Shown here: positions 17,401 to 20,400 of the stretch, one piece after another | How the letters are laid out: every line of letters starts with the position of its first letter | How positions within the stretch are numbered: the first letter of the stretch is position 1 | Source: Escherichia coli O127:H6 str. E2348/69 | GTDB taxonomy: Bacteria > Pseudomonadota > Gammaproteobacteria > Enterobacterales > Enterobacteriaceae | Reading direction: 5' to 3' (one strand) | NCBI RefSeq assembly: GCF_000026545.1 | Contig: NC_011601.1 | DNA length: 64,000 bases | Program-made: the position numbers

Positions 17401-20400
17401 ATGTTGTTGGCGTATTCATTGAGGCCGTAGTTTACGGAGCAGTCAGACTGCGAACGGGTGCCTTCATAGTCCACGCCCAGACCGCCGCCGACGTCGAAGC
17501 ACTGAATATTGACGCCCAGCTTGTGCAGTTCCACATAGAAACGCGCGGATTCACGAACGCCTGTCGCGATATCGCGAATATTCGCCATCTGCGAACCGAG
17601 GTGGAAGTGCAGCAGTTGCAGACTGTCGAGACGCCCGGCTTCACGCAGCGTTTCAACCAGTTGCAGTACCTGAGTCGCCGCCAGGCCAAACTTCGATTTT
17701 TCCCCGCCGGAGGACTGCCATTTACCCGAGCCTTGCGACGCCAGACGTGCACGCACGCCCAGACGAGGAACAACATTCAGACGTTCTGCTTCATCCAGCA
17801 CAATGGCAATTTCTGACATCTTCTCAATGACCAGATAGACCTTGTGGCCCATCTTCTCGCCAATTAATGCCAGGCGGATATATTCGCGGTCCTTATAACC
17901 GTTGCAGACGATGACGCTACGGGTCATGCCAGCATGTGCCAGCACCGCCATCAACTCAGCTTTGGAACCGGCTTCCAGGCCCAGCGGTTCGCCCGAATGA
18001 ATCAGGGACTCAATCACCCGGCGGTGCTGGTTAACTTTGATCGGATAAACGAGGAAGTAATCGCCGTTATAGCCGTAGGATTCCCGCGCTCGTTTGAACG
18101 CGGCGTTAATGGAACGCAAACGGTGCTGCAGGATCTGTGGGAAACAGAACAGTGCAGGCAGACGCTGGCCCTGTGCTTCACGAGTTTTCACTAACTGCGC
18201 GAGATCGACGCGAGCTTCCGGGACGTCCGGGTCCGGGCACACGCTAATGTGGCCCAGCTCGTTAACGTCATAGTAGTTATTGCCCCACCAGGCAATATTG
18301 TAAGTACGCAGCATCTTGCTGGCTTCCTGGGAGCTCATTGCAACCTCCTGCATGGAGCGTAGTACACCGTGTTCGCCCGCTGACGAAGGCAAACCCATAG
18401 ACATGTCGTCAGACATAGCGAACCTCAAATTATTTTATTAAGTGTAAAACAGTTAACGACTATCGCAGCCTGGAACTGCGATAACAACCCATAAGCACAT
18501 GGATTTTCCAGCAGTGAATGCTGACGCTCCAACTGCGCAACCGGTTTCTTTTTCATAACATTATTAAGCACATAACCGAACGTAAGTGTGACAGTTCGGC
18601 GAAACCACGAGAAAACTCTTGTTTTTACAAGAGCGCCCTTGTTCAGTCCTCAGTAGCTGTAACCAGCTCTTGAATCCTGAGAAGCGCCGAGATGGGTATA
18701 ACATCGGCAGGTATGCAAAGCAGAGATGCAGAGTGCGGGGAACGAATCTTCACCAGAACGGTGAGACAGGTTAAGCAGCAGACAACGGTTCATTATTTCG
18801 TATCACCTCCACGGCCGCCTGTTAAGACGAACCCACAAGCCAAAACTCTGTTTTCAACCCGGCTGGAAGTGGCAACACGAAAGAAACGTCGTGTGCTTTT
18901 TATTTAAGCCGCGCGCCGCGTTTTATACCCCACAATGGCAGAAAATTGCAAAAGATAAATACGCAGAATGCCAGCATTGTCAGGAAAAATTTCCAGCCAC
19001 GTTTTTAACAGAATGAGACACGATTCAAAAAAAAGTGGAAATCGGGTGAAGAATTGACCTAAAATAGCCATCCAGATGTTAATCCATCCATACCGATTAA
19101 CACTCAGACTGCCAGTGTTTTTAACCTGCAGAGTCGTGGTAGGATCCGCTACCACAGAAAATCCACACAACAGTTTGAGCTAACCAAATTCTCTTTAGGT
19201 GATATTAAATATGGCAAAACACCTTTTTACGTCCGAGTCCGTCTCTGAAGGGCATCCTGACAAAATTGCTGACCAAATCTCTGATGCCGTTTTAGACGCG
19301 ATCCTCGAACAGGATCCGAAAGCACGCGTTGCTTGCGAAACCTACGTAAAAACCGGCATGGTTTTAGTTGGCGGCGAAATCACCACCAGCGCCTGGGTAG
19401 ACATCGAAGAGATCACCCGTAACACCGTTCGCGAAATTGGCTATGTGCATTCCGACATGGGCTTTGACGCTAATTCCTGTGCGGTTCTGAGCGCTATCGG
19501 CAAACAGTCTCCTGACATCAACCAGGGCGTTGACCGTGCCGATCCGCTGGAACAGGGCGCGGGTGACCAGGGTCTGATGTTTGGCTACGCAACCAATGAA
19601 ACCGACGTGCTGATGCCAGCGCCTATCACCTATGCACACCGTCTGGTACAGCGTCAGGCTGAAGTGCGTAAAAACGGCACTCTGCCGTGGCTGCGCCCGG
19701 ACGCGAAAAGCCAGGTGACTTTCCAGTATGACGACGGCAAAATCGTTGGTATCGATGCTGTCGTGCTTTCCACTCAGCACTCTGAAGAAATCGACCAGAA
19801 ATCGCTGCAAGAAGCGGTAATGGAAGAGATCATCAAGCCGATTCTGCCGGCTGAATGGCTGACTTCTGCCACCAAATTCTTCATCAACCCGACCGGTCGT
19901 TTTGTTATCGGTGGCCCGATGGGTGACTGCGGTCTGACTGGTCGTAAAATTATCGTTGATACCTACGGCGGCATGGCACGTCACGGTGGTGGTGCATTCT
20001 CTGGTAAAGATCCATCAAAAGTGGACCGTTCCGCAGCGTACGCAGCACGTTATGTCGCGAAAAACATCGTTGCTGCTGGCCTGGCCGATCGTTGTGAAAT
20101 TCAGGTTTCCTACGCAATCGGCGTGGCTGAACCGACCTCTATCATGGTGGAAACTTTCGGTACCGAGAAAGTGCCTTCTGAACAACTGACTCTGCTGGTA
20201 CGTGAGTTCTTTGACCTGCGTCCATACGGTCTGATTCAGATGCTGGATCTGCTGCACCCGATCTACAAAGAAACCGCAGCATACGGTCACTTTGGTCGCG
20301 AACATTTCCCGTGGGAAAAAACCGACAAAGCGCAGCTGCTGCGCGATGCTGCCGGTCTGAAGTAATCTTTCTTCACCTGCTTTCAAAGGCCAGCCTCGCG

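Follow-up and report, generated by a model that had tools for sequence, protein, structure and literature searches.

yqgB of Escherichia coli O127:H6 str. E2348/69, a known small gene whose conserved frame ends at the speA start, and its possible cis role in speA expression

In classical translational coupling, as between the MS2 coat and replicase genes and at many operon junctions, the stop codon of one cistron overlaps or adjoins the start codon of the next, which lies in a structured region. The small ORF mdtU lies in the long, polyamine-related 5′ leader of the E. coli spermidine exporter mdtJI, where Rho-dependent premature termination occurs just downstream of it and where its RNA, by prediction, pairs with the downstream gene's ribosome-binding region; for this system the dependence on spermidine and the effects of start-codon mutants have been demonstrated (PMC7815308). 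The leader ORF speFL precedes speF, which encodes a decarboxylase of polyamine synthesis, and, as summarised in PMC7815308, the position of the ribosome on speFL governs both the access of Rho and the structure of the mRNA. SpeFL itself is a strictly conserved, ornithine-capturing peptide.

Here we consider yqgB, which precedes the decarboxylase gene speA, in the window, i.e. the whole 64,000-nt stretch of E. coli O127:H6 str. E2348/69 that was analysed. Like mdtU, yqgB is a small ORF in a long polyamine-related leader, with Rho-dependent premature termination just downstream and a predicted pairing between its own RNA and the ribosome-binding region of speA; like speFL, it stands before a decarboxylase of polyamine synthesis. 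With classical coupling it shares a stop within 8 nt of the downstream start and a Shine-Dalgarno (SD) sequence and AUG that fall in a predicted helix; unlike the classical cases, the upstream cistron is a 43-codon ORF without demonstrated product function, and the coupling is a proposal. The stop of mdtU is 106 nt upstream of mdtJ, whereas that of yqgB overlaps the SD or the start of speA.

The initial annotation had placed on the minus strand, directly upstream of speA, a 43-aa YqgB-like ORF that was missed by the ORF track. The features at this junction are:

18425..18556, minus strand: yqgB coding sequence, 43 codons plus TGA stop, annotated ATG at 18556 (translation, NF033844, PF11036, RefSeq)
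16440..18416, minus strand: speA, biosynthetic arginine decarboxylase, 658 aa, into which yqgB leads (RefSeq annotation of identical DNA)
18423..18427, minus strand: yqgB/speA junction TGAGG, in which the yqgB stop (18427-18425) overlaps the speA SD GAGG (18426-18423) (sequence read)

The translation of 18425-18556 agrees exactly with the 43 residues that the initial annotation quoted and is followed by a stop, and the position directly upstream of speA is borne out, as 8 nt separate the yqgB TGA from the speA ATG (18416-18414). The gene was absent from the ORF track solely because it is below the size cut-off; the mechanical ORF list gives the frame as 18425..18571 (48 aa), taking as its start a GTG that lies in frame, five codons before the ATG. 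The proposed identity is right and can be put more strongly, the ORF being YqgB itself. Both family models are matched over their full length: the NCBIfam equivalog NF033844 small_YqgB with 90.1 bits (cut-off 35, positions 1-40 of 40) and Pfam PF11036 YqgB with 113.3 bits (cut-off 24, positions 1-43 of 43). RefSeq names the gene 'yqgB: acid stress response protein YqgB' in genomes with 100% identity to this region. Compared with yqgB of E. coli K-12 MG1655 (b2939, NP_417414.2), 43/43 aa and 132/132 nt are identical, with 3 differences in the surrounding 541-nt leader; in K-12 too the gene follows yqgG, directly precedes speA and is divergent from metK. Of 5426 complete E. coli genomes, all but one (5425) contain the locus, and the homologues of speA carry PF02784, PF17810 and PF17944. 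Hence it is near certain that the ORF is the known gene yqgB, already annotated and here met in another E. coli strain. In itself the finding is routine, a small annotated gene having fallen under an ORF-length filter.

Further upstream, the leader of speA contains a second small ORF and a probable promoter:

18650..18793, minus strand: yqgG, second annotated small ORF in the speA leader, 47 codons (PF23505, 129.9 bits; RefSeq)
18914..18951, minus strand: probable speA leader promoter, TTGCAA (18951-18946), 18-nt spacer, TATAAA (18927-18922) (hexamers read from the sequence)

The promoter scan of the tool did not return these hexamers because the second one ends in A. The published speA 5′ UTR clone of Adams et al. 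has its 5′ end at ~18914, as given by mapping primer JW10222 GCGCGGCTTAAATAAAAAGC (PMC7815308 supplement) onto the window, and extends to the speA ATG, so it includes yqgB. Counted from ~18914, the leader is roughly 498 nt long and holds both yqgG and yqgB; from about -370 on it is highly conserved throughout. A sigma-70-like site inside yqgB, TTAACT-16-AATAAT at 18456-18429, was also returned by the promoter scan; lying in A/T-rich DNA, it was treated as a chance match, because the published start of the speA leader is ~500 nt upstream.

The hairpins in the leader and the beginning of speA are:

18605..18634, minus strand: hairpin H1, GCTCTTGT/ACAAGAGT, then U-rich UUUUCUCGUGGUUU, between yqgG and yqgB (terminator-like hit)
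18575..18600, minus strand: hairpin H2, GCCGAAC/GTTCGGT, immediately before the yqgB start
18508..18524, minus strand: small hairpin inside yqgB, TCAGC/GCTGG, codons 11-16
18460..18484, minus strand: hairpin inside yqgB, TTATCGC (codons 25-27)/GCGATAG (codons 31-33) (RNAalifold)
18363..18446, minus strand: predicted nested hairpin around the speA start (RNAalifold consensus; E. coli MFE and centroid folds)

With its U-rich tract, H1 resembles a terminator or an attenuator. In 79 of 81 sequences yqgG precedes yqgB, and in most cases it ends 4-22 nt before H1. Among 46 sequences, compensatory changes occur in 3 of the 8 pairs of H1, the loop of which varies in sequence and length, and two-sided ones in 4 of the 7 pairs of H2. 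The small hairpin (97.8% of cells paired) is the apex of a longer imperfect helix over codons 4-24, in the outer part of which columns 130 and 167 pair as A-U in 28 sequences and as G-C in 13. The hairpin at 18460..18484 has 7 pairs, 100% paired, with invariant stems and an 11-nt loop that corresponds to the variable codons 27-30 and is fixed in length.

The hairpin around the speA start consists of three helices: an outer one between TACACT (18446-18441, yqgB codons 38-39) and GGTGTA (18368-18363), a middle one between GTTCGCT (18423-18417) and GGCGAAC (18377-18371), and an inner one between CTGACGA (18412-18406, speA codons 2-4) and TCGTCAG (18386-18380), with the variable speA codons 5-9 as its loop. 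All 20 pairs are formed in 46 of 46 sequences and all are invariant, so covariation is zero and the covariation test of this hairpin is uninformative. Third-position diversity in speA is 0.00 at codons 2-3, 10-12, 14 and 17-19 and 0.03 at codon 4, against ~0.35 in the gene body; the frozen sites coincide with the helix arms (codons 2-4 and 10-19), and the codons of the loop vary. These sites support the predicted structure, by which the speA start region would be occluded. As for thermodynamic stability, the 109-nt start region alone is not significant (z = -1.42), and the fold of the 293-nt leader gives z = -3.11.

From such data one might consider the yqgB ORF a by-product, and the speA leader a structured regulatory RNA that binds a protein, an sRNA or a ligand, with translation irrelevant. 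The high conservation of the leader from about -370 and the covariation in H1 and H2 speak for this reading; against it, a permissive Rfam scan (E up to 1) of positions 18000-19400 gave no known RNA family. We consider it very unlikely, as the reading frame of yqgB is maintained in a way that it would not explain.

We compared 86 genomes in all. The word-indexed protein search for YqgB had a reach limited to Escherichia, and an exhaustive HMMER search added divergent gene calls and gene calls extended at the N- or C-terminus. For the junction we considered the 80 sequences with a locatable speA start, i.e. 79 fetched enterobacterial loci plus the window. In all of them yqgB directly precedes speA, the 79 fetched loci showing the same arrangement as K-12, downstream of yqgG and divergent from metK, and among the fetched loci it was never found away from speA. 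The stop has two states: it is either 8 nt before the speA ATG, inside the SD (65/80), or it is the TGA of ATGTCTGA inside speA (15/80, i.e. 14 loci plus L076, in which the tblastn speA start is 3 nt early).

The yqgB ATG is kept in all 80 fetched loci and in the window. The frame is free of stops in 77 of 77 unique enterobacterial sequences, while stops interrupt the other two in 77 and 74 sequences, respectively, hence yqgB is not a chance ORF; under column independence 9.1 stop cells would be expected, against 0 observed. The alignment has no indels in codons 1-38/39, even within highly variable segments, in contrast to the upstream H1 and H2 loops, which do carry them, and the indels past codon 39 (-1, +2, -3) merely switch between the two stop end points. 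In two loci the frame is open throughout an insert of ~130 nt; this counts for little, given that the inserted DNA is rich in GC and leaves a second frame nearly free of stops as well. An open frame of 40-67 codons ending at ATGTCTGA is present in all six outgroup genera as well (Erwinia, Mixta, Serratia, Yersinia, Dickeya and Pectobacterium), the other two frames closing after 1-43 codons (shuffle probabilities 0.03-0.13 per genome). The positions of the stops are fixed anyway by the SD and by speA codons 2-3, therefore the openness of the frame alone is independent evidence. The kept ATG, the zero stops, the lack of indels and the frame that stays open through the insert and in six outgroup genera all count against a by-product ORF, and frame maintenance gives indirect support to translation of yqgB. 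As expected of a leader uORF, the stop lies within a few nt of the start of the main gene, both across the enterobacteria and in 6/6 outgroup genera.

The peptide behaves otherwise than the frame. The initial annotation called YqgB a small protein, which takes the peptide to be the functional product; for this the comparative data give no clear support. Diversity at codon positions 1/2/3 is 0.178/0.227/0.219 in yqgB against 0.04/0.01/0.35 in the body of speA, thus without the codon periodicity of a protein, a pattern that a by-product ORF would also give. Overall pN/pS is 0.80 (shifted frames 0.96 and 0.69), and at the variable codons, about a third of the residues, it is 1.12, which is neutral-like. 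The conserved blocks, M-x-K-K-P-V-A, Y-G-L-L-S and A-I-V-V-N-C-F-T-L, have a pN/pS of 0.29, and codons 7, 13, 33, 34 and 39 in them change only synonymously, so some selection on the peptide is possible. This first reading of the 0.29 is offset, because a value of 0.39 is obtained in one shifted frame and the RNA model leaves the variable third positions unpaired, and the test does not discriminate. In fact, no nucleotide of the conserved codons varies, not even at four-fold degenerate sites, which again would suit a by-product ORF, and the conserved "residues" are invariant nucleotides within predicted helices.

These data bear on the possibility that YqgB is a trans-acting small protein, as its curated family names imply ('acid stress response protein', 'virulence promoting factor'), in which case acid resistance would be promoted by the peptide as such, e.g. 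through stimulation of the speA/speB polyamine pathway or through an action on the envelope. We consider this unlikely. The conserved blocks, with their synonymous-only changes and their pN/pS of 0.29, are in its favour, but the same blocks coincide with the invariant RNA helices of the predicted fold, about a third of the residues are neutral and codon periodicity is absent. Moreover, the C-terminus varies, giving total lengths of 43, 48, 49, 70 or 87-91 aa, a translated insert is tolerated, and in the fetched loci the gene is never apart from speA. From a 31-sequence alignment AlphaFold predicted neither a fold of YqgB with confidence nor any secondary structure (pLDDT 52, pTM 0.13), and the highest 19-residue Kyte-Doolittle mean, 1.27 at AYGLLSQFQAAIVVNCFTL, is below the threshold for a transmembrane helix.

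Alternatively, yqgB could encode a leader peptide with a sensory role, like SpeFL, MdtU or TnaC. Together with a small molecule, e.g. polyamine, agmatine or arginine, the nascent chain YGLLS...AIVVNCFTL would then halt the ribosome at the stop or close to codon 39, so that the start hairpin would be remodelled and Rho blocked. Two uORFs of this type are already known in polyamine biosynthesis (PMC7815308). Moreover, the exit tunnel would hold the C-terminal half of the peptide, which is conserved, codons 38-39 supply the 5′ strand of the start hairpin's outer helix, and Rho-dependent termination occurs just downstream. Arrest peptides of this type are expected to be under purifying selection at a fixed distance from the stall site, but from the conserved block to the stop there are 4, 9 or about 50 codons, depending on the locus; neither the peptide nor its motif is recognisable in the leader frames of Dickeya, Pectobacterium and Erwinia, and RNA pairing explains the conservation of the block equally well. 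We regard a sensory peptide as distinctly improbable: in contrast to SpeFL, YqgB lacks both overall peptide-level selection and, as described below, an arrest signature on over-expression.

Published work is the source here for the translation of yqgB, for termination by Rho in the leader and for the lower speA/speB expression of a yqgB deletion. One published position lies just beyond the start-region hairpin:

18359, minus strand: Rho-dependent RNA 3′ end (K-12 3085854, PMC7815308 supplement; placed by the offset from the K-12 comparison)

This end is 57 nt into speA, just 3′ of the start-region hairpin, with a Rho score of 3.09, the entry 'Yes' and the tag 'uORF'; in the same study a speA 5′ UTR fusion was Rho-sensitive and yqgB-speA was named as a candidate uORF pair (PMC7815308). 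In cell-free initiation profiling by INRI-seq there is a peak at the yqgB start codon, a signal at odds with a by-product ORF, whereas initiation was not detected in vivo by Ribo-RET, which would fit such an ORF (PMC9825163). As yqgB also has no obvious SD, the flux through coupling may be small. The same work reports a strong internal start of speA at Met27, independent of yqgB (PMC9825163).

As regards phenotypes, deletion of yqgB in Salmonella lowers speA/speB mRNA and arginine decarboxylase, with rescue by putrescine or spermidine, and a role in acid stress resistance in E. coli is attributed to Hobbs 2010, as cited in that study (PMC13159126). Deletion phenotypes in the two organisms favour a trans-acting YqgB; however, a loss of speA/speB expression that polyamines rescue is what a cis effect predicts, and the word 'complement' is absent from the main text of this 2026 study, in which a drug screen was directed against the peptide (PMC13159126). 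Over-expressed YqgB accumulated to levels that induced IbpA and ClpB and was grouped with inducers of the aggregation/heat-shock response, not with arrest peptides (PMC11890864). This accumulation would be in line with a trans-acting protein, and the heat-shock response without a translation-arrest signature argues against a sensory peptide, with the reservation that no ligand was added (PMC11890864).

Taking these data together, we lean towards considering yqgB mainly a cis-acting leader ORF, translationally coupled to speA and limiting Rho termination. Precisely, the 3′ edge of the speA SD, the AUG and codons 2-4 would be buried in the conserved predicted hairpin, and the yqgB frame always ends at its foot, where the stop is either the UGA that lies within the SD, 8 nt before the AUG, or that of AUGUCUGA. 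On terminating there, a ribosome would therefore melt the hairpin and either hand over to the speA start or expose it. We infer that translation of the leader and of early speA would shield the RNA from Rho, which would reduce premature termination at speA +57. By this account the features under selection would be the openness of the frame, the point at which it ends and the structure of the RNA, and the peptide would be largely a by-product. Against this reading count the invariance of the start-region helices, for which covariation gives no support, the unexceptional stability of the local fold, the small flux that coupling may have and the yqgB-independent start of speA at Met27.

A further reading goes beyond simple coupling: by means of its invariant RNA blocks, of the nascent chain or of both, the yqgB leader would be a metabolite-responsive attenuator that sets speA expression. 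The metabolite sensed could be polyamine, agmatine or arginine, the long SpeA isoform could come from the hairpin-buried, yqgB-coupled AUG1, and the leader might set the ratio between this isoform (AUG1) and the short one (Met27). We give this proposal a low probability. If it were true, the 'acid stress protein' phenotypes and the targeting of YqgB by drugs would rest on a cis effect on speA.

For the cis-acting leader ORF that we favour, the comparative evidence suggests that evolution preserves an open frame, the place near the speA start where this frame ends and the structure of the leader RNA, rather than the peptide to which the databases have given the names "acid stress response protein" and "virulence promoting factor". 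If this is true, the phenotypes of yqgB deletions would be speA (polyamine) phenotypes, and speA, already flagged as a candidate (PMC7815308), would be the third uORF-controlled gene in enterobacterial polyamine homeostasis, after those governed by speFL and mdtU.

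The minus-strand ORF at 18425-18556 is a gene already known, yqgB. Its translation reproduced exactly the 43-residue peptide and stop reported in the initial annotation, and the name YqgB, proposed there, was correct: profiles match over the full length and the DNA is identical to b2939 of K-12 MG1655 (132/132 nt). The peptide covered the full models of NCBIfam equivalog NF033844 small_YqgB (90.1 bits, cut-off 35) and Pfam PF11036 YqgB (113.3 bits, cut-off 24). As for the absence of the ORF from the ORF track, the length filter was the sole reason; a mechanical ORF list gives the frame as 18425..18571, 48 aa, because its reading begins at a GTG that lies in frame, five codons ahead of the ATG. 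This GTG (18557-18571, minus strand) is nearly invariant across genera, and several automatic gene calls begin yqgB farther upstream in the same frame, through the leader hairpin H2. The start seen by cell-free initiation profiling (INRI-seq) is the ATG; in vivo Ribo-RET did not detect it (PMC9825163).

A 601-nt query around yqgB matched 5425/5426 complete E. coli genomes, where RefSeq names yqgG, yqgB and speA. The features of the region and of its coding sequences are as follows.

Local gene order: metK (divergent), yqgD, yqgG, yqgB, speA, speB
18650-18793, minus strand: yqgG, 47 codons, second annotated ORF of the speA leader
18427-18425, minus strand: yqgB stop TGA, read directly from the sequence
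18416, minus strand: ATG of speA (arginine decarboxylase), read directly from the sequence
18336-18351, minus strand: internal speA start signal GGAGG-N6-ATG at Met27
15563-16294, minus strand: 243-aa ORF between speA and speB, "hypothetical protein"

The 243-aa ORF is without a Pfam match and occurs in 3557/5426 complete E. coli genomes; K-12 lacks it, and there speA adjoins speB. The K-12 annotation also has yqgC (b2940, 71 aa), which runs antisense to yqgG and overlaps it; this ORF is also in the window (18692-18907, plus strand) and is unannotated by RefSeq in SK1144, the one other strain viewed.

Comparative loci were collected by an alignment-seeded scan with one genome per species, which found 114 loci; 80 of the 114, essentially all from Enterobacteriaceae, were fetched. 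In the window, and likewise in each of the 79 fetched loci where the start of speA could be located, yqgB lies immediately 5′ of speA, and its stop has only two states. In the first (n = 65), the TGA lies within the speA Shine-Dalgarno (SD) sequence, 8 nt ahead of the ATG, so that in the window the stop overlaps the SD (TGAGG) and 8 nt separate the genes. In the second (n = 15, including L076, a locus whose speA start was set 3 nt early by tblastn), a single-base shift close to the 3′ end gives ...EVRYV and the stop is the TGA of ATGTCTGA inside speA. Indels in yqgB are confined to the region after codon 39 and are of -1, +2 or -3; they therefore toggle only between these two end points.

In two loci, some 130 nt of GC-rich DNA are inserted between codon 38 and the speA SD:

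L039:2614-2745 (approximate): insert in Intestinirhabdus alba
L082:2612-2755 (approximate): insert in Enterobacter sp. BIGb0383

The frame stays open across the insert, which is probably a small repeat or mobile element, and encodes 87 and 90 aa; further extended forms, 70 and 91 aa long (HMMER matches P0029 and P0026), are related to these. Two fetched records have organism labels that are probably wrong, or are themselves contaminated: a 270-bp "Streptobacillus notomytis" contig (L003), whose yqgB encodes the E. coli protein at 100% identity, and a "Chryseobacterium sp. 18061" contig (L056), whose peptide is identical to the one encoded by Citrobacter sp. 18056, a genome of the same project.

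The ATG is kept in every locus. Among 77 unique sequences there are no in-frame stops, against 9.1 stop cells expected under a column-independent model, while the other two frames hold 257 and 186. The ORF is free of indels through codon 38/39, highly diverged segments included, whereas indels do occur in the hairpin loops immediately upstream. With such figures, we judge it very improbable that the frame is incidental within a structured RNA.

The substitution pattern, in contrast to the frame, does not resemble a protein's. Codon positions 1/2/3 show diversities of 0.178/0.227/0.219, against about 0.04/0.01/0.35 in the speA body of the same genomes, and the Nei-Gojobori pN/pS is 0.80 in frame (shifted frames: 0.96 and 0.69), reaching 1.12 in variable codons. 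The conserved "residues" represent conservation at the nucleotide level: GGG TTG TTA TCG and TGT TTT ACA are identical in 68/68 sequences, four-fold degenerate sites included. For the conserved blocks the ratio falls to 0.29. This value does not decide on peptide-level selection: the ratio is 0.39 in one shifted frame, and the few sites that vary do so synonymously, at third positions that the RNA model leaves unpaired. AlphaFold returned no fold for YqgB (pLDDT 52, pTM 0.13), and its hydropathy is under the transmembrane range.

We consider it unlikely, on this evidence, that YqgB is a small protein acting in trans. The product name comes from deletion phenotypes: in Salmonella (2026), deletion of yqgB lowered speA and speB mRNA, arginine decarboxylase and spermidine, and raised sensitivity to acid and colistin, reversed by putrescine or spermidine; the word "complement" is absent from the main text of that study (PMC13159126). 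A ligand-sensing arrest peptide seems more doubtful still; over-expression of YqgB induced heat-shock (aggregation) proteins without a translation-arrest signature (PMC11890864).

The entire speA leader is unusually conserved. Its 5′ end, from the cloning primers of Adams et al. (PMC7815308) mapped onto the window, is at about 18914, so the leader is of about 498 nt and both yqgG and yqgB are inside it. We found no Rfam family matching the region. The structural elements are listed below.

18634-18615, minus strand: hairpin H1, followed by a U-rich tract (element 18605-18634); 3 pairs change on both sides
18600-18575, minus strand: hairpin H2; 4 pairs change on both sides
yqgB codons 4-24: predicted long imperfect helix (consensus fold)
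yqgB codons 27-30: variable loop of a predicted 7-bp hairpin, TTATCGC/GCGATAG (consensus fold)
yqgB codons 38-39, SD 3′ edge, AUG and speA codons 2-4: predicted nested pairing with speA codons 10-19 (consensus fold)

H1 and H2, both upstream of yqgB, are thus backed by compensatory changes. The pairs of the three elements predicted over yqgB and the junction are present and invariant in 46/46 sequences, and covariation is silent on them because they never vary. Third-position diversity in speA is 0.00 at codons 2-3, 10-12, 14 and 17-19 and 0.03 at codon 4, against about 0.35 in the body, and the loop codons 5-9 vary even in protein. These frozen synonymous sites offer independent comparative support for the predicted start-region structure. 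A single-sequence fold of the E. coli DNA gave the same hairpin, with z-scores of -1.42 (109-nt piece) and -3.11 (293-nt leader).

As regards yqgG, it is conserved in 79/81 sequences, including a C-terminal block of 17 residues that is strongly conserved, and usually ends 4-22 nt ahead of H1. With the covarying H1 and the U-rich tract, it forms a leader-peptide/attenuator-like arrangement; the excerpt considered of the supplementary 3′-end list of Adams et al. contains no 3′ end between K-12 3085854 and 3086295 (PMC7815308).

Outside the family we considered six speA loci (Erwinia, Mixta, Serratia, Yersinia, Dickeya and Pectobacterium). In all six, 40-67 codons without a stop precede ATGTCTGA in the frame that ends there, while the other two frames shut after 1-43 codons; the shuffle probability per genome is 0.03-0.13. 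In Serratia the ORF can be recognised as a relative of YqgB, and the frames of Dickeya, Pectobacterium and Erwinia cannot. In Serratia and Yersinia (L086:1455-1515 and L088:1455-1515), speA codons 2-4 (CUGAUGAU) have a possible pairing partner in AUCGUCAG of the upstream ORF, replacing or adding to the downstream UCGUCAG partner used in Enterobacteriaceae, a hint of alternative pairings at the speA start that exclude one another.

On balance, we lean towards yqgB being a translated leader ORF that acts in cis. A ribosome ending yqgB would sit on the 5′ arm of the hairpin burying the speA start and could open it, allowing initiation or re-initiation at speA, and translation of the leader and early speA would oppose Rho. 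Adams et al. reported a Rho-dependent RNA 3′ end 57 nt inside speA, which falls just beyond the hairpin (18359 in the window), and a Rho-sensitive speA 5′ UTR fusion; the uORF idea is theirs already, yqgB-speA being listed among candidate uORF-regulated pairs (PMC7815308). A cis-acting leader ORF would account for strict conservation of frame and end point alongside neutral peptide evolution, for a translated insert being tolerated where it falls, in a loop of the RNA model, for other families keeping an unrelated uORF that ends at the same place, and for a deletion phenotype of lowered speA/speB expression. Synonymous sites around the Met27 start are frozen across 73 species, and this signal agrees with a published internal speA start that shortens the protein by 26 residues at its N-terminus (PMC9825163); dependence on the hairpin-buried first AUG beside yqgB would then be confined to the long SpeA isoform. 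Database names and a recent drug-target study presume a functional peptide, a presumption to which the comparative evidence lends no clear support.
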